A stretch of DNA of 64,000 nucleotides from Candidatus Latescibacterota bacterium (GTDB lineage Bacteria > Latescibacterota > UBA2968 > UBA8231). Each line of letters begins with the position of its first letter. Positions within the stretch are counted from its first letter, which is position 1. The stretch spans positions 864,001-928,000 of the forward strand of contig CBDETK010000013.1 of assembly GCA_965242865.1 (NCBI GenBank). The letters run 5' to 3'. The position numbers and the translations under genes are program-made. The notes below the pieces were generated by a model. That model made no database searches, had not been told where the DNA came from, and was given only the letters and a program-made list of their open reading frames with translations. Positions 6,127 through 64,000 of this stretch are shown one piece after another.

Positions 6127-6903
6127 ATGCCACCGCTAGCGCGTTTTGGTCTAGAAGGTAAAATCGTCGTCGTCACCGGGGCTGGCCGGGGGATTGGCCG
6201 GACGATTGCGCTCGAATGCGTCCAGTCGGGCGCGCACGTCGCCGTGGGCAGCCGCACCACGTCTGAGTTGGAAACCCTCGCGGCCGAGATCGAGGCGGGG
6301 GGCGGGCGGTGCTTTCATCACCCGCTCGACGTAACGGACGTCCGCGCTATCGAGCGTTTTATGGCCGCGGTCGTGGCGCACTACGGCCGGCTCGACGTGC
6401 TGGTCAACAACGCTGGCTACAACAAGGTCGGCAAAATCCTCGACTGCGACGAAGCGCGCTACGACTTGATCGTCGATGCCAACCTAAAGAACGTGTTTTT
6501 CTGTAGCCAGATTGCCGCGCGGCAGATGATCGCGCAGGGGGCGGGGGGCACCATCGTCAATATCTCGTCCCAAGCCGGCGTGGTCGGCGCGCCGGATCGC
6601 GGCCCGTACTCGGGGGCCAAAGGAGGCGTCAACAACCTGACGCGGACTATGGCCGCAGAATGGGCCGAGTATCAGATACGGGTCAACGCGGTGGCTCCCA
6701 CTGTGACCCGCTCGCCGCTGGCCGAAACCGCGATGCGCGAAAGCCAAGCCTTTGCCGATGCGGTCAAGACCAAAAACCTCCTGCGCGGAGCCTTGGCCGA
6801 GCCGGAGGAAATGTCGGCGCCGGTGATCTTTTTGGCCTCGGACGCCGCGTCGATGATCACCGGCCACACGCTGGTGGTCGATGGGGGCTGGACGATTGTC
6901 TAG
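6127..6903 (+). CDS. Short-chain dehydrogenase/reductase
   Basis: TGAGRGIG, NNAG, NISS, YSGAK, VDGG motifs. Confidence 0.93.
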   Translation: MPPLARFGLEGKIVVVTGAGRGIGRTIALECVQSGAHVAVGSRTTSELETLAAEIEAGGGRCFHHPLDVTDVRAIERFMAAVVAHYGRLDVLVNNAGYNKVGKILDCDEARYDLIVDANLKNVFFCSQIAARQMIAQGAGGTIVNISSQAGVVGAPDRGPYSGAKGGVNNLTRTMAAEWAEYQIRVNAVAPTVTRSPLAETAMRESQAFADAVKTKNLLRGALAEPEEMSAPVIFLASDAASMITGHTLVVDGGWTIV

Positions 6904-7147
6904 CCAGCTATTGCGTTGAATGGCAGCAGGTTGCTGGCTAGGCTTTATCGCAATTCTTTAAGGGCCGCAGGGCCAATTCACTTAAAACAACGGGGCGTCA
7001 AGGCGAGGAAGTGCGCCGTGCAGAACCCGTGGGCGCGGCGACCATACCGAACAAACGCTCCCCAATGCCGCTGCCGTCAACTCGCGTTGTCCCAATCGGT
7101 TAAGCAACTTACTTTAGCAGACCATCGCTAGTACAAGGGGGCTTTGC

Positions 7148-9301
7148 TTGCTGAGACGCTTGCCGATTCACTACCTGCACCACCTCGCCGGGCGCGACGA
7201 CCAAGCCCTGCTCGCACAGCCCGGGGCTCAAACGCTAACCATGCGGGCGTTTTGGGTCGGGTCGTTTCTCAGCTTTTTTCTTGCCGTCGGCGCGCCATAC
7301 GGCAACATGATCATACGCGGTTCCTACATGGCCTTGGACTTCAGCACGCCGGGGGCCATTTTTTTGTTCTTAGTGCTCATCGGGCTGCTCAATGTGCTGT
7401 TCAAGGTCGCGGCCCATCCGCTGGGGGCCGTAGTATGGGCCTTGGTCTCGGGCGCGCTGTACAGCTCGTACTACGGCTGGCTGGCCCCCCTCGATCCGTT
7501 TGCCCCGGGGTTTTTCTTCGCCACCTTCATCCTCGCCTCATCCCTGCTCAATGCGGTCTGGGTCGCTTGCGGGCGGAGCTTGGTCCTCAACCGAGCCGAG
7601 CTGATTCTCGTGTACGTCATGCTGTTGATCGTCGCGGCCGTTTGCACCATGGGCCTGAGCGAACAAATTCTGCCGATGATCACGGCGGTGTTCTACTTTG
7701 CCTCGCCGGAAAACAAGTGGCGGGAAGTGCTCTTTCCGCATTTTTCGGCGCGCCCGGTCCTCGTGGCCGATGGGCGGGACAACAAGCCCTTTTACGAAGG
7801 GCTGACGCCCGGGGAGGAGATTCCCTACGCAGCGTGGGTCGAGCCTTTGGGCTGGTGGGCCGTTTTTCTCTTGGCCCTCTACGTGACCATGGTGTCGGTC
7901 GCGGTCATCGTCCGCCGGCAGTGGATGGAGCGCGAGCGCTTGCCCTATCCGATTACGCAGGTGGGAATCGCCATGGTGCGCGGCGAGGAGCGCGACCGCA
8001 AGATCAATGCCTTTTTTCGCCAGCCGGCCATGTGGGCTGGTTTTATGGTGCCGCTCGTTTTGGGCAGCTTAAAGGCCCTGCACCGCTACGACGCGGCCTT
8101 TCCGGTGGTCTCCCAGACGACGTGGATCCCCTTTGTCGGCAAGCAGACCTTGCAACTGACTGTCAGCTTTGCCATGGTCGGCTTTTCGTACTTCATCAAC
8201 GCCAACATCGCGGCGGGGATCTGGTTGTTCCACCTGTTGGCCAAGGTCGAAAAGGAGTTGTTGACCCTCGCTGGCGTGACGTCCGAGCAAAAAGTGGTCT
8301 ATGGCGTGGCGGACGTTTCCCTGATGGCGTACCAAGGGGTCGGCGCTCTGCTCGCCTTGGTCGGGGTGGGCTTGTGGGTGGGGCGGGAACACTTGCGCAA
8401 CGTGGGTAAAAAGGCCCTCGGCTTGGCCCCCGACGTGGAGGACGGGGACGAGATCATGTCCTATCGCGGGGCCTTTTTCGGGGCAGTGGGCGGGGTCGTG
8501 GTCATGTCGGTATGGCTGTGGGTCATGGGGACGCCGCTGTGGGTGGCGTTTGTTTTCGTGGTCTTGGCCCTGTGCGTGTTTCTCGGGTTGACGCGCATTG
8601 TCGCCGAAGCCGGCCTAGCGGTGGTGCGCGCCCCAATGACGGCCCCGGACTTGGTGATCTTGGGATTGGGAACCGACCTCGTGACCCGGACCGGCGTGTG
8701 GAACGCGTCGTTGGCCTATATGTGGGGCGCGGATGTGCGGGTGTTCGTCATGGCGACCTGCACCAACGCCCTCAAGCTCATCGAGGAAATGGAACCCCGG
8801 CTGCGGCGGCTGGTGTTTTGGGCCATTATTCTCGCGCTCTTCATCGGTGCGCTCGGCTCGTTTTGGATGATTTTCCATCTGGCCTATCAGCACGGCGGCA
8901 TCAATCTCAACGGTTGGTTTTTCAAGGGCGCGCCCGAAACCGCGTACCAAACCGCGTTCAGCAACATGGAGCCGGCCGGCGTTCACTGGCCGGGGCTGGG
9001 GTTTTTGGCCGGCGGGGGGCTGGCGATGGGGGCGATGATGTGGGCGCGGCAACGCCTGCCGTGGTGGCCGGTGCATCCCATCGGCTTTCCCATTGGGGCC
9101 AACGGCATGCTCAACTCGGTGTGGTTCAGCGTGTTTTTGGCTTGGTGTTTTAAGAAGTTGATCATGCGCTTTGGCGGGGTGGCCATGTATCGCCGCAGCC
9201 AGATGTTCTTTTTGGGGCTGATCTGCGGAGAGGTTTCGTGTAATGGAATTTGGTTGGTCATAGATTACTTCACGGGCAAAGTGGGGAACGTCATTTTTTA
9301 G
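7148..9301 (+). CDS. Polytopic membrane protein, DUF6785/DUF6784-like putative transporter
   Basis: 717 aa, many TM segments; RRQWMERERLPYPI and WWPVHPIGF motifs recalled for this family. Confidence 0.72.
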   Translation: MLRRLPIHYLHHLAGRDDQALLAQPGAQTLTMRAFWVGSFLSFFLAVGAPYGNMIIRGSYMALDFSTPGAIFLFLVLIGLLNVLFKVAAHPLGAVVWALVSGALYSSYYGWLAPLDPFAPGFFFATFILASSLLNAVWVACGRSLVLNRAELILVYVMLLIVAAVCTMGLSEQILPMITAVFYFASPENKWREVLFPHFSARPVLVADGRDNKPFYEGLTPGEEIPYAAWVEPLGWWAVFLLALYVTMVSVAVIVRRQWMERERLPYPITQVGIAMVRGEERDRKINAFFRQPAMWAGFMVPLVLGSLKALHRYDAAFPVVSQTTWIPFVGKQTLQLTVSFAMVGFSYFINANIAAGIWLFHLLAKVEKELLTLAGVTSEQKVVYGVADVSLMAYQGVGALLALVGVGLWVGREHLRNVGKKALGLAPDVEDGDEIMSYRGAFFGAVGGVVVMSVWLWVMGTPLWVAFVFVVLALCVFLGLTRIVAEAGLAVVRAPMTAPDLVILGLGTDLVTRTGVWNASLAYMWGADVRVFVMATCTNALKLIEEMEPRLRRLVFWAIILALFIGALGSFWMIFHLAYQHGGINLNGWFFKGAPETAYQTAFSNMEPAGVHWPGLGFLAGGGLAMGAMMWARQRLPWWPVHPIGFPIGANGMLNSVWFSVFLAWCFKKLIMRFGGVAMYRRSQMFFLGLICGEVSCNGIWLVIDYFTGKVGNVIF

Positions 9302-52805: not shown

Positions 52806-52810
52806 TGCTC

Positions 52811-52830
52811 ATAAAGATTTTTATGTAAAT
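52811..52830. repeat. Solo 20-bp AT-rich repeat overlapping the apt start codon
   Basis: ataaagatttttatgtaaat, identical to 36397 and 58349. Confidence 0.8.
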
Positions 52831-57577: not shown

Positions 57578-58458
57578 TGACGCTCGGCGTGGCCGGCCAT
57601 GCCCGCGAGGTGGCGGTCCATCGGCAGGCTCTGCGGGGTTGCCGCGAGATTCGACTGGTGTATCGCGCCGATTGCGCCGCGGTCTTACGCGAAAAAATAG
57701 ATGGGCTGGTGTTGTTGCACGTAGAGGACAAGGCGCATTGGCTCGACGCGGCCAGCGCGGCCGGTCTCCACGTCATGGCGACCCATCCCGTCCAAGAGGT
57801 GAACCATCCGTCCAAGGTCTGCGTGCTGTCGCTGGGGAGGCACACGCGCTTTGGCTCGGCGTTGGCCCGACCGGGCGTGGCGCATTACTCGTTGGAGCTT
57901 TCTTTTACGTCGGCTTCCTTTGAGCGCGTGGACCGCGAGGCGATTTGCAATCAAGCGGCCTTGGATATGTGCGACCTGCTGTTGGGTGCTTGGGGGCCGG
58001 TCGATGTGCTGTACAGCAGGATGCGCAACTTCTTTCATCCCGGTCGCGTGGAGGACGCGTCGGTCGCGCTGCTGAGAATGCACAATGGCGTCGAAGGTTC
58101 GGTCGCGCTCTTCGACGTGGCGGGGGGGACCCCGACCTTGCGGATTCGGTTGTACGCAGCCGACGAGGTCGTGGATGCGTCTTGGCCTTGGGCATGGGCC
58201 GCAGACGATTTGGCGGCGTACTATCGCAATTTCGTCGCTTGTATCCAAGGGCGGGCCCAGCCCCTGTTGGGATTGGGGCAGGTCGCCGAAAGCTATCGGC
58301 TCTTGGCATGGCTGCGCGCCTCGGCGCGACAAGATGCGATAATGTCTTATAAAGATTTTTATGTAAATAAAAAAACAAAAGACAAAAACCATCATCATTC
58401 AGAACTGGATTCCCGCGTTCGTGGGAATGACGACTGTATGCAAAAACAGGGCCGATGA
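57574..58458 (+). CDS. Divergent Gfo/Idh/MocA-like oxidoreductase; C-terminus extended by repeat-derived sequence
   Basis: AGLHVM, VEDASVALLRMHNGVEG, FVACIQG resemble the family; canonical GxG and EKP motifs lost. Confidence 0.55.
   Translation: MMTLGVAGHAREVAVHRQALRGCREIRLVYRADCAAVLREKIDGLVLLHVEDKAHWLDAASAAGLHVMATHPVQEVNHPSKVCVLSLGRHTRFGSALARPGVAHYSLELSFTSASFERVDREAICNQAALDMCDLLLGAWGPVDVLYSRMRNFFHPGRVEDASVALLRMHNGVEGSVALFDVAGGTPTLRIRLYAADEVVDASWPWAWAADDLAAYYRNFVACIQGRAQPLLGLGQVAESYRLLAWLRASARQDAIMSYKDFYVNKKTKDKNHHHSELDSRVRGNDDCMQKQGR
58349..58431. repeat. Composite AT-rich motif plus CGTC-type REP, read through in frame
   Basis: ataaagatttttatgtaaataaaa...ctggattcccgcgttcgtgggaatgac. Confidence 0.8.
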
Positions 58459-58482
58459 ACATTCCATTAGGACAGCTATATA

Positions 58483-59016
58483 ATGTATAAGTCATCGTCA
58501 TCCGCCGCGCCTCCCACGTACTTCGCGCTTGGGTTAGCGTCTTTCTTGTTGGCGATTGTGTTGCTGTTCAACCTGCTCAGTCCTATGACCGTGCCGGTTA
58601 CCAAGGAGCAGTTTGAGCAGATTAGAGAGGCCGACCTGATTGAGTATCTAATCGTGCAACCCCGGGGATTTGCTTGGCAGCTCAAACGGGCCGTGCGCGT
58701 CCAAGGGACCAACGGCCCGACTCAGGCCCAGCGGATCGCGCTCGCCGAGCCGGACTCAACGATGGCCGAAAATTGGCAACAAAAGGGGGGTGCGGTGCGG
58801 CAAGAGCGCGATGTTTCGCAGTGGGGGGGGATGATCTTCATGGCCTTGTTGCTCGGCGTGGGGGGGTGGCATATCTGGTCCCAAATACGGCTCGATCTCA
58901 AAGGGGGAGGGGGGCCTCGCCGTCGCTTGCGCGACCTAGAAACCGCGCTCAAACAAGGCAAAATTACCCAAGCCGAATTCCGGCAGCAGGCCGAGCGGCT
59001 GTGGGCCGAATTGTGA
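58483..59016 (+). CDS. Two-TM membrane protein with C-terminal SHOCT-like helix
   Basis: TM-loop-TM, then LRDLETALKQGKITQAEF. Confidence 0.65.
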   Translation: MYKSSSSAAPPTYFALGLASFLLAIVLLFNLLSPMTVPVTKEQFEQIREADLIEYLIVQPRGFAWQLKRAVRVQGTNGPTQAQRIALAEPDSTMAENWQQKGGAVRQERDVSQWGGMIFMALLLGVGGWHIWSQIRLDLKGGGGPRRRLRDLETALKQGKITQAEFRQQAERLWAEL

Positions 59017-59030
59017 GGAGCTATGGCGAG
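59010..59030 (+). repeat. 21-bp direct repeat, left copy (mutL RBS and first codons)
   Basis: attgtgaggagctatggcgag, identical to 60268-60288. Confidence 0.93.
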
Positions 59031-59136
59031 AGGTGGGGACGCTTCCAAGGCTGGAGGGCAGGACGCCCTCCAGCCCGGATGCATTGCAAACAACACGTAG
59101 GTCTGTGTGCTATCGGCGTCGGGGACGCCATCCCCG

Positions 59137-60108
59137 TTACTGTCTGTCGGGCAGGTCAGGGTTGGGTGGGACTGGCTTTGACGCTACGACGCGCCTTGAG
59201 CCAGGTCTTGCTCTCAAGGAGTCGATTGCGGCTCTTGATGCTTCGGAGAGGGGACAACCAGAAATCGATATAAGTTTCAAGTTGGGCAGCTTGCCCGGCA
59301 GGCCGAAGTCACTCAAATCCGAAACCGCGCACGACCTGTTACCTTTGCTATGCATCCTCAGCGTATCCAAGTTGGTCAAATTTGCCAACGGATTCACATT
59401 CGTAAGAAGGGGGTTGCCCATCAGCCTCAGGTGTCGCAAGTTGGTCAAATTTGCCAACGGATTCACATCCGCAAGAAGGTCGTTGTTGGTCAGCCTCAGG
59501 TGTCGCAAGTTGGTCAAACTGTCCAATGGACTCAAGTCCATAAGAAGGTCGTTGGCATCCAGATACAGGTGTCGCAAGTTGGTCAAACTTCTCAATGGAC
59601 TCAAGTCCGTAAGAAGGTCGTTGTCGCCCAGCCGCAGCCACTTCAAGTTGGTCAAACTGGCCAACGGAGTCACATCCGTAAGAAGGGGATTGCTGCTCAG
59701 AGCCAGCGAGTCCAAGTTGGTCAGACGGGCTAACGGAGTCATATCCGAAATCGCGTTGTCGTTCAGATTCAGGAATCGCAAGTTGGTCAAGTGTTCAAGG
59801 CCTTCCAAACGCTGAATGTTTTTACTGCTCGCGTCGAGCTTTGTCAGGAGAGCCAGATCATTTGCGGTAAGGGGCGTCACGTGCGCCAAGTTGGGGGGGA
59901 TGTCCAACAAGGGGTCCAGTGTCTTCCGCACCGCACGCTCCAGATTGGGGTCGATGAAAGGCGAAACTGGGCAGGATGTGCTTGTACTCAGGTGGGCTTT
60001 GCCGGCCGGATGGGGGGCAACCGGCGCGGAGTCGGCGCATCCCATCCAAGTGGCGATGAGGGCCAACAGGGCGAATCCCAGCAGGGTTTTTAGGGGGGTC
60101 AACAACAT
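59137..60108 (-). CDS. Internalin-like LRR lipoprotein A
   Basis: WMGC lipobox, FIDPNLERAVR cap, mostly 23-aa LRRs (caagttggtcaaa recurring at about 69-bp period). Confidence 0.88.
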   Translation of the reverse strand: MLLTPLKTLLGFALLALIATWMGCADSAPVAPHPAGKAHLSTSTSCPVSPFIDPNLERAVRKTLDPLLDIPPNLAHVTPLTANDLALLTKLDASSKNIQRLEGLEHLTNLRFLNLNDNAISDMTPLARLTNLDSLALSSNPLLTDVTPLASLTNLKWLRLGDNDLLTDLSPLRSLTNLRHLYLDANDLLMDLSPLDSLTNLRHLRLTNNDLLADVNPLANLTNLRHLRLMGNPLLTNVNPLANLTNLDTLRMHSKGNRSCAVSDLSDFGLPGKLPNLKLISISGCPLSEASRAAIDSLRARPGSRRVVASKPVPPNPDLPDRQ

Positions 60109-60206
60109 TTTTCCTCTCCTTTCCTTTATCTGGTATGGAGGTTAGGAGGGGGCTAGTCCTAGGAAACGCCCCTCCTTATTTGGTTTATAGGCCGTAGTAT
60201 CTCCAC

Positions 60207-60223
60207 TGCCCGTTATCATTAGT
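60207..60223 (-). promoter_or_regulatory. Degenerate recombination half-site A (spacer plus one arm)
   Basis: tgcccgttatcattagt; 15/17 match to the reverse complement of 63346-63362. Confidence 0.6.
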
Positions 60224-60267
60224 TACTTGAAGGGGGTTAGGCGAGGTCTGGTGGTCTTTGATTCTAT

Positions 60268-60288
60268 ATTGTGAGGAGCTATGGCGAG
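60268..60288 (+). repeat. 21-bp direct repeat, right copy
   Basis: attgtgaggagctatggcgag containing mutL ATG 60281. Confidence 0.93.
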
Positions 60289-62035
60289 TATTATTCGCGT
60301 TCTCGACGAAAATCTGGTTGGAAAAATCGCCGCTGGTGAAGTCGTGGAACGGCCGGCCTCGGTCGTGAAGGAATTGGTCGAAAACTCAATTGATGCGGGG
60401 GCTACAAAAATCCGCGTGGAGATCAAGGCCGGCGGCAAGCAGTTGATTGCGGTGACCGACGATGGCTCGGGCATGACCCGGGAGGATATCGCCTTGTGTG
60501 TGCGCCGGCATGCCACGAGCAAGATGGCCTCGGCGGCCGACCTGTTCTGCATTCAGACGCTGGGCTTTCGCGGCGAAGCCCTAGCCAGCATTGGTGCGGT
60601 CGCTCAGTTGGCCATTGAATCGCGCACCCCGCAAGACGAGGTGGGGACGCGCTTGGTCGTGGAAGGAGGGATAGAGCGCGAGATGCACAGCATGGGACGG
60701 GCGCACGGCACGACCATTGTGGTAAAGAACCTGTTTTTTAATACGCCGGCGCGGCGCAAATTCCTCCGGTCCATCAATGCGGAAGCCCGCCACGTGGCCC
60801 AGACCGTCATCCACTTAGCGGCTGGCTACCCGGCCCTTGGCTTTGAACTAGCACACCAAGACCGCCCGGTCTTGAACTACGCCCCGGCCTCTCGGCGAGC
60901 GCGGGCGGCCGAGTTGCTGGGCTTTCCAGCCGCCGAACTGTTGGAGTTGGCGCACGAGGAGGAGGGTCTCAAAATCGAAGGGGTCTTGGCCGGTCCCGAG
61001 CGCTGCGGCCCCAGCAAGGGCAAGCAATATCTCATTGTACAGGGACGGCCCATTGCTTCGCGGCTGATGACCCGTGCGGTACAGCGGTGTTTTGAGGGCC
61101 TGCTGCCCGAAGGACACCATCCGGTATTCATGCTCTGGATCGATATGGATCCCAAGAAAATCGACGTCAATGTCCACCCGACCAAGCGGGAGATTCGCTT
61201 GGCCAACGAGGGGCAGGTCGTCGCGGCCATTGAAACTAGCGTCCGGCACAGCTTGCGCCTGCCCGAGGTGCAATCCTTTGTCTATGCTCCTCCGCGCTCC
61301 AGCGAGACCGGCCGCGATGAGGGCAGCGAGCCGGTCGCGGTCCGCGTGGGCGAGCCAGCGTCACCAGTGCTGCACACCCTGCCCGCGTCCGGCCCCCCGG
61401 AGGCAACTGCCGGCGACCAACTCGCGATGACCTTTGTCGCCCCGGGCGAGGCCAAAGTCGCTGTCGCCGCAGACGCTGCGATGTGGCAGGTTCACAATCA
61501 GTACATCCTCGTCGAGGTGGCCGATGGCTTGCTTTTTGTCGATCAGCAGGCCGCGCACGAGCGCATCCACTACGACCGGGCCATGGCGCAGCTCGATGGC
61601 GCGACCGGGGAAAGCCAGCAGTTGCTCTTTCCCATCCAGCTAGAAATGGGGGCCGCGGATTTCGAGGTCTTCAACCAAGTGCGGGATGACATTGCCAAGC
61701 TGGGCTTTGTCGTGCGGGACTTTGGGGCGCGGACGGTGTTGGTGGAAGCTGTTCCTGCGGCCTTGGATCGCTTTGGCGAGGGCGACGCTTTTTATCAGCT
61801 CTTGAACGACGTGCGCGATGGCCAGCATTCGGGGCACGCTTGGCGCGAAGCCCTCGTCTTAGCTTATGCGCGCAAGGCGAGTATCGAGAAGGGGCAACGC
61901 CTGAATGCCGAGGCGCAGGCGCATTTGATCAGGGCACTGCTCCAAGTGGAGCGGCCGCACGTAAGCCCGACGGACAAGCCGATTATGGCGCGGATGAAGT
62001 TGAGCGATATGGAGCGGCTGCTACGGAAGTTCTAA
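60281..62035 (+). CDS. mutL: DNA mismatch repair protein MutL
   Basis: IAAGEVVERPASVVKELVENSIDAGA, TLGFRGEAL, DVNVHPTK, DQQAAHERI. Confidence 0.97.
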   Translation: MASIIRVLDENLVGKIAAGEVVERPASVVKELVENSIDAGATKIRVEIKAGGKQLIAVTDDGSGMTREDIALCVRRHATSKMASAADLFCIQTLGFRGEALASIGAVAQLAIESRTPQDEVGTRLVVEGGIEREMHSMGRAHGTTIVVKNLFFNTPARRKFLRSINAEARHVAQTVIHLAAGYPALGFELAHQDRPVLNYAPASRRARAAELLGFPAAELLELAHEEEGLKIEGVLAGPERCGPSKGKQYLIVQGRPIASRLMTRAVQRCFEGLLPEGHHPVFMLWIDMDPKKIDVNVHPTKREIRLANEGQVVAAIETSVRHSLRLPEVQSFVYAPPRSSETGRDEGSEPVAVRVGEPASPVLHTLPASGPPEATAGDQLAMTFVAPGEAKVAVAADAAMWQVHNQYILVEVADGLLFVDQQAAHERIHYDRAMAQLDGATGESQQLLFPIQLEMGAADFEVFNQVRDDIAKLGFVVRDFGARTVLVEAVPAALDRFGEGDAFYQLLNDVRDGQHSGHAWREALVLAYARKASIEKGQRLNAEAQAHLIRALLQVERPHVSPTDKPIMARMKLSDMERLLRKF

Positions 62036-62169
62036 AGCTGAGCGCAGATCGGCTATCGGCTTACTACACGACACCAGCGACCCGCCGGAGGGTAGGACGC
62101 CCTCCAGCGGGAGCATTGGAACAACACACGTAGGTCTATGTGCTATCGGCGTCGGGGACGCCGTCCCCG

Positions 62170-63111
62170 TTACTGTCTGTCGGGCAGGTCAGGGTCAGGT
62201 GGGACTGGCTTTGACGCTACGACGCGCCTTGCGCCAGGTCTTGCTTCCAAGGCACGGATTGCGGCTCTTGATGCTTCGGAGAGGGGACAACCAGAAATCG
62301 ATATAAGTTTCAAGCTGGGCAGCTTGCCCGGCAGGCCGAAGTCACTCAAATCCGAAACCTTGCACTCGGAGCTATGCATCTTCAGCGTATCCAAGTTGGC
62401 CAGATTGGCCAATGAATTCACATTCGTAAGATCGGGGTTGCCAGACAGCCTCAGATATTGCAAGTTGGTCAAACTGGCCAGCGGAGTCACATCCGAAATC
62501 GAGTTTGCGCCCAATGTCAACCTTTGCAAGTTGGTCAAACTGGCCAGCGGAGTCACATCCGAAATCGAGTTTACGTTCAGCCTCAGGACTCGCAAGTTGG
62601 TTAAACTTCTCAACGGACTTACATCCGAAATCGAGTTCACGGCCAGCCACAGAGAGTCCAAATTCGTAGCGTGTTGGAGGCCGTCCAAGCTCCCAATGTT
62701 TTTATTTTTTGCGTTGAGCACGGTCAGGGTAGCCAGATCCGTCACTCTAAGGGGCGGCACGGTAGGGTCCGTCAAGCTGCTGGTGGGGTCCCCCCCCACC
62801 TGGGCCCCTAGTGCTGTCCGCACCGCACGCTCCAGACTGGAGTCGGCGAACGTAACGTAGGTCGGTGTGCTATCGGCGTCGGGGATGCCGTCCCCGTCCG
62901 AATCGGTGGCGGTCTGGGTACTGTCGGCGTCGGGTATGCCGTCCCCATCAGAATCGGCGGCAGTCTGGGTGCTGTCTGGACAGGTCAGGGTCAGGTGGGC
63001 TTTGCCGGCCGGATGGGGGGCAACCGGCGCGGAGTCGGCGCATCCCATCCAAGCGGCGATGAATCCCAACAGGGCGAAGCCGAGCAGGGTTTTTATGGGG
63101 TTCAACATCAT
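62170..63111 (-). CDS. Internalin-like LRR lipoprotein B
   Basis: WMGC lipobox, 2x DSDGDGIPDADST, FADSSLERAVR cap, 22-aa LRRs; C-terminus nearly identical to LRR A. Confidence 0.88.
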   Translation of the reverse strand: MMLNPIKTLLGFALLGFIAAWMGCADSAPVAPHPAGKAHLTLTCPDSTQTAADSDGDGIPDADSTQTATDSDGDGIPDADSTPTYVTFADSSLERAVRTALGAQVGGDPTSSLTDPTVPPLRVTDLATLTVLNAKNKNIGSLDGLQHATNLDSLWLAVNSISDVSPLRSLTNLRVLRLNVNSISDVTPLASLTNLQRLTLGANSISDVTPLASLTNLQYLRLSGNPDLTNVNSLANLANLDTLKMHSSECKVSDLSDFGLPGKLPSLKLISISGCPLSEASRAAIRALEARPGARRVVASKPVPPDPDLPDRQ

Positions 63112-63156
63112 TTTTTCTCTCCTCCTTATTTGGTTTATAGGCCGTGGTATCTCCAC

Positions 63157-63173
63157 TGCCCGTTATCGGTAGT
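63157..63173 (-). promoter_or_regulatory. Recombination half-site B (spacer plus one arm), inverted relative to the full site
   Basis: tgcccgttatcggtagt is the exact reverse complement of 63346-63362. Confidence 0.75.
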
Positions 63174-63320
63174 TACTTGAAGGGGTGAATAGTGGAGGCG
63201 AGGTCTGGTGGGCTTTGATTCCGGTCTGGTAGTCTCTGATTCCATCAGACCGGAAAGCATCCTGCAGTTAATCAGCAATTGGACGTTCAGTCTTTTTATG
63301 AGAGAACTGAAATTTCGTCC

Positions 63321-63348
63321 TTGACTTTTATTTTTTACAACCTATACT
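63321..63348 (+). promoter_or_regulatory. Sigma70-like promoter facing the recombinase
   Basis: TTGACT-16 bp-TATACT; the -10 overlaps the left arm of the palindrome. Confidence 0.6.
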
Positions 63349-63376
63349 ACCGATAACGGGCATTATCGGTAGTATA
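63343..63376. promoter_or_regulatory. Putative tyrosine-recombinase core site (14-6-14 perfect palindrome)
   Basis: tatactaccgataa-cgggca-ttatcggtagtata, 110 bp upstream of the recombinase ATG. Confidence 0.75.
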
Positions 63377-63399
63377 AAAACTAGGCGAAGCCCTCGCAA
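63371..63399 (-). promoter_or_regulatory. Divergent sigma70-like promoter facing LRR B
   Basis: On the minus strand TTGCGA-17 bp-TATACT; the -10 is in the right arm. Confidence 0.5.
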
Positions 63400-63486
63400 A
63401 ACGCGGCGGCAAAATGCCGCGGTGTTCGCTATATTTATTTTATTCTTTAGCCACTGTTAAGAACATCGCGGATATTTATCCATTTA

Positions 63487-64000
63487 ATGAGTGAGACGAT
63501 CAAACCAATCGTCCGCCGACTGACGCCAACGCCCGCGTTGGTTGCGGACGACCCCCTCGAACAATTTCTCAGCGGCCAGCTCAGCGAGCGCACTCGGCGT
63601 GCGTACTACGCCGACCTCCAGCACTTTTTTGCATCCATCGGCATGGAACTCGCAGACGTCTCCCTCGCCATCTTACGCACGATCACCTTTGAACACGTAG
63701 TCGCCTTTAGAAACCAACTCGCCAGCGAAGGCTACAAGCGCAGCAGCATCAATAGAAAATTGTCCAGCCTGAAGTCGTTGTTCAAGATGTTGGTCGCCTT
63801 GGGCCACATTGGGAAAAATCCGGCCGACTCCGCCTTGGTGCGCGGCTACAGATTGGACGAAACGCTGGTTGGCAAAGCACTTTCCAATGAGGTGTTGAAC
63901 AGACTACAGCAAGCCATTGCCGAGGAAGAAAACGACTTAGTCCGTACGCGCGATGCGGCCATGTTCCATTTGCTCATGTTCGGCGGGCTGCGCCGATCCG
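63487..64000 (+). CDS. Tyrosine recombinase (XerC/D-like), 3'-truncated by window edge; absent from the ORF track
   Basis: SERTRRAYYADL, SSINRKLSSLKSLF, NPA, RDAAMFHLLMFGGLRRS (first catalytic Arg). Confidence 0.92.
   Translation, partial: MSETIKPIVRRLTPTPALVADDPLEQFLSGQLSERTRRAYYADLQHFFASIGMELADVSLAILRTITFEHVVAFRNQLASEGYKRSSINRKLSSLKSLFKMLVALGHIGKNPADSALVRGYRLDETLVGKALSNEVLNRLQQAIAEEENDLVRTRDAAMFHLLMFGGLRRS

Follow-up and report, generated by a model that had tools for sequence, protein, structure and literature searches.

Why does a gene for a leucine-rich repeat (LRR) lipoprotein stand at the very start of mutL, between this mismatch-repair gene and the gene upstream of it, and does the arrangement amount to a switch? 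The question is raised by a 64,000-nucleotide stretch (positions 864,001 to 928,000 of contig CBDETK010000013.1, here C13; the whole stretch is called the window below) of the Candidatus Latescibacterota genome under study, G000 (5,997,474 bases, 93.6% complete), in which 1,237 bp holding an LRR gene (cassette 1) lie between two copies of a 21-bp sequence (the 21-mer) that spans the end of the upstream gene, U, and the start of mutL. We find that this DNA is a lineage-specific insertion with a true target duplication, and we give a probability of about 0.6 to the reading that it is a fixed, non-autonomous, lineage-specific local duplicate of an LRR lipoprotein cassette 3 kb away (cassette 2), made by a replication or recombination accident. 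On this reading the cassette is not a switch but an ordinary, if neat, local gene duplication. It lies in a three-gene module, U-mutL-Int, in which Int is a tyrosine recombinase gene.

An insertion with a target duplication

The 21-mer, ATTGTGAGGAGCTATGGCGAG, occurs without mismatch at both ends of the insert (59010-59030 and 60268-60288), and no third copy was found with up to two mismatches in the window (0.00 expected from 100 shuffles) or with up to three in the whole genome. It contains the TGA stop codon of U (59014-59016), a GAGGAG ribosome-binding site (RBS; 59015-59020) and ATGGCGAG, the first 8 bases of mutL. A preliminary description of this DNA had placed the repeat, with this same content, at these two positions, and the pair proved to be exact and unique in the genome. 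The start codon in the left copy is a decoy, opening a frame of 25 codons (59023-59100, read from the sequence).

Comparison with relatives shows which arrangement is the older one. These were congeners (Candidatus Latescibacterota loci L092-L114), set beside 16 genomes of other families in the same class. U is translationally coupled to mutL in the relatives: the stop codon of U is followed after 6-8 nt by the mutL ATG in 19 of 19 congener loci and in 23 of 23 named congener loci, two sets that overlap in part because they include the same genomes. Cassette 1 is absent from all 23, and three of them (L095, L096, and L103), as well as the metagenome contig L086, carry the identical 21-mer in single copy. 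Scanning metagenomes with a 28-mer that spans the left junction returned one contig only, which is the empty site of another species. The order U-mutL-Int is found in 13/13 complete relatives, with no LRR match on either side of mutL in any of them. As the relatives have an uninterrupted U/mutL junction, the insert is an insertion with a true target duplication, as had been proposed. It had also been predicted that deleting the insert with one repeat copy would restore a tight U-mutL junction, and that related metagenome-assembled genomes might hold such an empty site; this same junction is what the 23 congener loci and one metagenome contig contain.

Both junctions were checked in assembled public contigs from four runs (X1, possibly the source sample itself, X2, X4, and X5; three studies in all), counting contigs with at least 31 letters on each side of a junction. 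Run X5 is labelled as a sponge metagenome, and its strain differs from G000 by ~2-3%. The left junction is bridged by contigs of X1, X2, and X4 with 0 differences and by the diverged X5, and the right junction by X1 and X2 (0 differences) and X5. Because contigs from three studies span a junction, we do not regard the duplication as an artefact. Among the joints listed for the four runs, none skips 59031-60288, as an empty site or a circle would, but contigs drop rare variants, so this carries no weight against excision. Four other joints (58379/62007, 58426/62059, 59086/62221, and 62086/59056) were rejected as rearrangements, their short sides being 21-35 letters, and are read as cross-matches among paralogous hairpins, inverted repeats and an inverted copy of the mutL end.

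The insert physically separates mutL from U, as the preliminary description had thought possible, with 1.26 kb, including a convergent LRR gene, now intervening; the RBS and start codon of mutL itself are unharmed. Codon changes in mutL number 42 synonymous and 16 non-synonymous on the G000 branch, and 27 and 17 on that of the closest relative. This ratio indicates that mutL stayed under constraint, and the gene is thus under purifying selection on the lineage that bears the insert. The features of the locus are collected in Table 1.

Table 1. Features of the locus, in window coordinates unless a contig is named (aa, amino acids).
Feature	Position	Strand	Description
IR_L	58344..58367	+	left inverted repeat of the module
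U	58483..59016	+	177 aa; two predicted membrane helices, no family match, genus-specific
Left 21-mer copy	59010..59030	+	U stop codon plus decoy RBS and ATG
Cassette 1	59031..60267	-	1,237 bp; hairpin element, LRR lipoprotein gene, its 5' region, 3-nt filler
Hairpin	59042..59084	.	GC-rich, of a small dispersed family; 3' end of the LRR gene
LRR1	59137..60108	-	323 aa; Pfam LRR_4, E=4.1e-27
Cassette 1 5' region	60109..60264	-	common to cassette 2 only; carries the 17-mer at 60207-60223
TAT filler	60265..60267	.	from where the cassette alignment stops to the right 21-mer
Right 21-mer copy	60268..60288	+	working RBS and start of mutL
mutL	60281..62035	+	584 aa, intact; HATPase, DNA_mis_repair, MutL_C; TIGR00585, 478 bits
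Cassette 2	62084..63221	-	likely source copy; just downstream of mutL, 3 kb from cassette 1; LRR2, same hairpin, same 5' region
LRR2	62170 to ~63111	-	LRR_4, E=2.2e-21
Palindrome	63343..63376	.	TATACTACCGATAA-N6-TTATCGGTAGTATA; promoter-like region of the Int gene
Int	63487..64467 (window ends at 64000)	+	tyrosine recombinase, 326 aa; inside the invertible segment
IR_R	G000:C13:928548-928571	-	right inverted repeat of the module; 548 bases past the window end

The cassette and its paralogue

Cassette 1 had been described as holding a single antisense LRR gene and no mobility gene, and open reading frame (ORF) and family searches of 59031-60267 bear this out: the LRR gene is the sole family-matched ORF, and no recombinase, transposase, excisionase or replication gene was found there. 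The signal peptide of LRR1 is, judging by eye from the motif WMGC, presumably of the lipoprotein type. An orthologue with 96% identity over 303 aa is present in another public assembly, and the protein belongs to a large family of LRR lipoproteins in G000, with 87 protein matches in a search of its own genome. Its LRR_4 domain, lipoprotein-like signal and multi-copy family, together with the sponge label of X5, mark it as an LRR protein of the eukaryotic-like kind. The left end of the insert coincides with that of the hairpin element, for which the predicted fold has an energy of -33.7 to -35.2 kcal/mol (z ~ -5.5), and no inverted-repeat pair joins the two ends of the insert. Rfam gave no match in 58200-64000 at E<=0.1. 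Scanning for promoters and terminators returned 4 promoter-like sites against 2.3 expected and nothing usable upstream of mutL or LRR1, under a promoter model that may not be the host's.

Two classes of element were tried for the cassette and rejected. An insertion sequence, miniature inverted-repeat transposable element or transposon does not fit, as there are no terminal inverted repeats or transposase, the duplication measures 21 bp (versus 2-15 bp), and the ends occur in two genome copies only. An integron gene cassette does not fit either: the adjacent recombinase scores 39.9 bits against an integron integrase cut-off of 265, and the 3' end of the cassette has no attC-like imperfect palindrome, only a perfect GC hairpin.

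The flanks of cassette 1 are homologous to cassette 2 alone. The two cassettes have the same orientation and share three blocks. The hairpin and 3' coding end match over 240 nt (94% identity), the signal-peptide region over 133 nt (92%), and the 5' region in two stretches of 65 nt (95%) and 26 nt (96%). In both, homology stops at ...TTTGATTC, which in cassette 1 leaves 3 nt (TAT) in front of the right 21-mer. The genome has the 5' region exactly twice, once in each cassette, and 30 congeners gave no match to it. For the C-terminal 103 aa, LRR1 and LRR2 are the only matches at E<=1e-40, with one further weak match in the same genome (1.6e-6) and none in the 30 congeners at E<=1e-5. Cassette 2, too, is absent from 13/13 complete relatives.

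The direction of copying is suggested by a palindrome next to cassette 2, which is kept in all 13 relatives inspected and overlaps two divergent TATACT boxes upstream of Int. One half of it, a 17-mer in the sequence variant specific to G000 and L096, is found in both cassettes, exactly in cassette 2 (63157-63173, 172 nt from the palindrome) and with 2 mismatches in cassette 1 (60207-60223); no other match with up to 2 mismatches occurs elsewhere in the genome. Its presence in both LRR 5' regions could reflect shared regulation. As the 17-mer comes from the adjacent Int promoter, its occurrence in both cassettes suggests that cassette 2 was built in place and that cassette 1 is a copy of it.

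Two smaller differences between the cassettes were also seen. The right end of cassette 2 (63200-63242) carries the 21-nt unit GGTCTGGTxGxCTxTGATTC twice in tandem; cassette 1 has the unit once and stops right at this place. The leader of LRR1 contains a segment of ~50 nt (60121-60170) that is missing from LRR2 and repeats the RBS region.

Origin of the insert

Two routes could have produced a local duplicate of this shape. In the first, a double template switch would have made its return landing 21 bp upstream of its departure point. In the second, mutL and cassette 2 would have been duplicated in tandem, after which the first mutL copy would have been deleted beyond its 8th base. Either route would leave the 21-bp duplication and the 3-nt TAT filler, with the left copy of the 21-mer keeping the U stop codon and the right copy keeping the translation signals of mutL. 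Because the U stop and the RBS and start of mutL all fall inside 21 bp, only an event that duplicates them leaves both genes working. Transcription of mutL would now come by read-through across the antisense LRR1 or from the cassette 5' region. The route taken, the use of cassette 2 as the source of cassette 1 and any change in how mutL is transcribed are inferred.

Several observations weigh against a local duplicate of this kind. The proteins of LRR1 and LRR2 are only ~47% identical in the central LRR region, so that later mosaic exchange with other paralogues, or a third copy now lost, is needed. At the left end, the 19 nt of 59031-59049 are unlike the left flank of cassette 2 and match a copy of the hairpin family at C13:100535, and a simple copy of the present-day cassette 2 therefore fails there. 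A tandem duplication of mutL or any other intermediate was found in none of the genomes examined. No Ku gene (PF02735) was found in G000, at 93.6% completeness, which makes end-joining capture unlikely. A genome-wide scan for isolated direct repeats, 17-45 bp long and 300-6000 bp from each other, returned 135 pairs; among the 13 inspected, one of them in detail, none is clearly another single gene inserted with a short duplication of its target. Several of the inspected pairs are tandem paralogues, and the one examined in detail is a longer, diverged duplication.

The same genome has a further locus with duplicated gene pieces. Within G000:C13:1181148-1183341, a small gene has its start, and a DUF1156-like methylase gene a part of its sequence, copied to a place 1.5-2.1 kb upstream; the copies show as isolated direct-repeat pairs of 21 bp and 30 bp and may be another gene-end stub.

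Among the alternatives, a recombination scar fares best, and we regard it as unlikely. Here, homologous exchange with a strain in which an LRR cassette abuts a mutL start would have left a gene-end stub behind. Duplicated short gene ends do recur at insertion boundaries in the module, in G000 near IR_R and in the congener G019, but the donor arrangement was not found in 30 congeners, and the relationship to cassette 2, like the 17-mer of local promoter origin, favours an origin within the locus.

The preliminary description had instead likened the cassette to SpyCI of Streptococcus pyogenes and suggested reversible excision, which would make it a mobile element that targets the start of mutL site-specifically, uses the 21-mers as att-like sites and, by excising, toggles the coupling of mutL. 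The exact 21-bp direct repeats at the mutL start are what such an element would leave, and a tyrosine recombinase gene stands 3.2 kb off in the same module. However, the insert has no recombinase (and hence no integrase), excisionase, replication gene or terminal inverted repeats, the 21-mer is found neither in cassette 2 nor elsewhere in the genome, so that an attP-like source is missing, and the adjacent recombinase has its own, unrelated target repeats. The insertion and its junctions are kept in the ~2-3% diverged strain of X5, the cassette is a local paralogue, and mutL has remained constrained. A repeat of 21 bp is marginal for homologous excision. We therefore set the analogy aside and consider a mobile cassette very unlikely.

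Still less credible is a retro-copy, in which complementary DNA (cDNA) of a cassette-2 transcript, from its start site to the hairpin terminator, would have been inserted at a staggered break with a long target duplication. Cassette homology running from the hairpin to a sharp 5' end does resemble a transcript unit, and the genome has one reverse-transcriptase-like gene (40 bits), but that single match is weak, the left 19 nt are unlike cassette 2, and we know of no precedent for bacterial gene retro-copies of this kind. That the duplication is an assembly artefact is next to impossible, as independent contigs bridge the left junction (in four runs) and the right junction (in three), and one shared assembly error is impossible for the diverged strain in X5.

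The invertible U-mutL-Int module

A local duplicate at the start of mutL leaves aside the larger unit in which it sits. In the relatives, U, mutL, and Int form a 3.5-kb segment between hprK-GFO and a flanking gene of 1022 aa that, from its N-terminal sequence, we take to be leuS. In 13 relatives and G000 the order is hprK, GFO, U, mutL, Int, and leuS reversed (orientation A); in 9 of the 22 relatives with known orientation the three-gene segment is exactly inverted (orientation B), and one more was not called. U is present in 21/24 congeners and Int in 22/24, and both are absent from all 16 genomes of other families. At both ends of the segment is an inverted repeat of ~30 bp, GTCTTATAA-N6-10-ATGTAAA with conserved A-rich flanks, and the pair is found in 21/24 genomes. 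The preliminary description had mentioned neither this pair nor cassette 2. In G000 the exact motif occurs at IR_L and IR_R only, and across five whole genomes it occurs 1-2 times per genome, always at known module ends, with 0 matches for a control pattern.

The orientation has changed repeatedly within the genus. On the mutL tree it needs 6 changes, of which well-supported branches force at least 5, and it clusters there no more than shuffled labels do; on the leuS tree it needs 5 changes, at least 3 of them forced. Sister pairs or groups of opposite orientation are L105/L106, L107/L110 (both complete chromosomes) and L100 versus L099 and L101. In the sister pairs, the variable spacer and the inner part of the repeat stay with the segment end and the outer flank is exchanged, which puts the crossover point on the outer border of the repeat, ...AAT|GTC....

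Int is one of three tyrosine recombinases (PF00589) in G000. It scores 132.7 bits to XerC (cut-off 335) and 118.9 to XerD (cut-off 330), and has weak matches to FimB/E-type invertases. With locus-specific inverted repeats, a linked recombinase, and both orientations with repeated switching, the module has the features of a site-specific invertible element. To judge by these sequence features, it is probably a dedicated site-specific inversion system with mutL as its cargo; the segment may otherwise flip by homologous recombination between the inverted repeats.

Since both flanks read towards the segment, U-mutL in either orientation runs in the direction of one neighbouring operon and head-on to the other. 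It is possible, if doubtful, that flipping alters mutL expression. An extended version, which we hold just as tentatively, is that the flip swaps the operon (hprK-GFO or leuS) that reads into U-mutL and the flank that runs antisense to it. Mismatch repair would then be phase-variable, under a programmed and reversible mutator switch, the G000 module, with its two LRR cassettes, would also serve as a landing pad for host-interaction genes, and cassette 1 would further loosen mutL from what drives it upstream.

The spacer between mutL and Int differs among relatives in length and content. In 13 of them it measures 145-420 nt; in G000, where it holds cassette 2, 1.45 kb; and in the closest relative, L096, ~1.9 kb. 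L096 has an empty U-mutL site and, at 6287-8222, a different mutL-Int insertion of ~1.9 kb, in which an ORF at 6538-6918 encodes ankyrin repeats and two further small ORFs encode coiled-coil membrane proteins. One of these two small ORFs splits the conserved Int promoter region. Among the other congeners, L104 lacks the Int-side repeat, and the Int orthologue of a divergent congener (G015:C28:12421-13341) has two in-frame stops (1 TAG and 1 TAA) and is possibly decayed.

Copies of the mutL end were seen at two places. In G000, a 28-nt inverted copy (25/28) of the last mutL codons and 6 nt downstream lies on the minus strand at C13:928492-928519 (window-equivalent 64492-64519), between the Int stop codon and IR_R, and the same piece is in an X5 contig, where it gives a joint of opposite strands. 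In G019 (L075/L093), an insert of ~100 nt at the 3' end of mutL is flanked by a diverged direct duplication of the mutL end, which BLAST aligns over 22 nt (91% identity) and which by eye extends over ~27 nt. Of its two copies, the downstream one keeps the sequence of other species. What had looked like a stub of the mutL start in G019 (ATGGCGAG) turned out to be part of this duplicated 3' end.

The surroundings of IR_L have several further peculiarities. Three degenerate copies of the inverted repeat, with 2-3 mismatches, lie within 32 kb (36392-36415, 52806-52829, and C13:932487-932510), and together with IR_L and IR_R they make up all genome matches to the motif. Two of them share the inner 20 nt exactly with IR_L and lack the outer GTCTT, and the third overlaps the leuS start codon. 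A hairpin repeat (GGATTCCCGCGTTCGTGGGAATGAC) fills 58388-58470, between IR_L and the start of U; its summed contig depth is ~30-fold up in X1 (4823.7 versus 147.2) and raised in the other three runs, and it breaks contigs. A unit resembling it follows the degenerate copy at 36392. In 58320-58460, G000 lacks ~26 nt just before IR_L relative to the relatives (by eye). The missing stretch includes TTGAAT, a box that might serve U-mutL as a -35 element. The GFO-like gene, which in relatives ends on a TAA inside the repeat, has in G000 a frame that continues through the repeat and the hairpin to 58458.

What the locus adds

Cassette 1 gives a base-pair view of a symbiont enlarging its repertoire of eukaryotic-like surface proteins by local copy-and-paste. 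Insertion into the 9-bp gap of a translationally coupled pair was tolerated because the overlapping stop, RBS and start were duplicated. It is a useful worked example and brings no new principle. The module matters more than the cassette, since here a housekeeping mismatch-repair gene and its own tyrosine recombinase lie between inverted repeats and have been flipped repeatedly within a genus. A recombinase-driven invertible mutL module would be new, and if the flip does alter mutL expression, it would be a new bacterial way of tuning the mutation rate.

Comparison with known systems

SpyCI is described as a phage-like island with site-specific integration, excision, episomal replication and a mutator state that follows growth phase. 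The G000 insert is like it in its position at the mutL start, its direct repeats (which here include the first 8 nt of mutL) and the splitting of mutL from the upstream gene. In contrast, it measures 1.24 kb, carries one LRR gene and no integrase or excisionase, is a copy of a local paralogue, and leaves a mutL that is constrained.

The insert also resembles two known kinds of bacterial rearrangement, segmental duplication through template switches and tandem duplication that deletions later remodel. In the present case one end lies at a dispersed hairpin element rather than at the flank of the source, and no intermediate was seen, but the nearby copy in the same orientation, the short filler at one junction and the short target duplication are as in those rearrangements.

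In their content, LRR1 and LRR2 resemble the eukaryotic-like LRR and ankyrin proteins of sponge symbionts, being LRR_4 proteins in a sponge-associated genome. Sponge-associated Latescibacterota genomes are reported to hold many LRR and ankyrin (ANK) genes (PMC12993501). The same study does not treat the mode by which such families expand, and mutL and inversions have 0 occurrences each in it (PMC12993501).

No paper on a module such as U-mutL-Int came up when the literature was searched for mutL in combination with invertible elements or with DNA inversion. Invertible elements served by tyrosine recombinases include the fim switch (FimB/FimE), the invertible regions of Bacteroides, the R64 shufflon (Rci) and pneumococcal PsrA. 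The module, rather than the cassette, is like these in its short inverted repeats, linked tyrosine recombinase, occurrence in both orientations and fixed crossover point. The known elements flip promoters, surface-protein genes or restriction-specificity genes, whereas the segment described here is 3.5 kb long and carries mutL and the recombinase itself.

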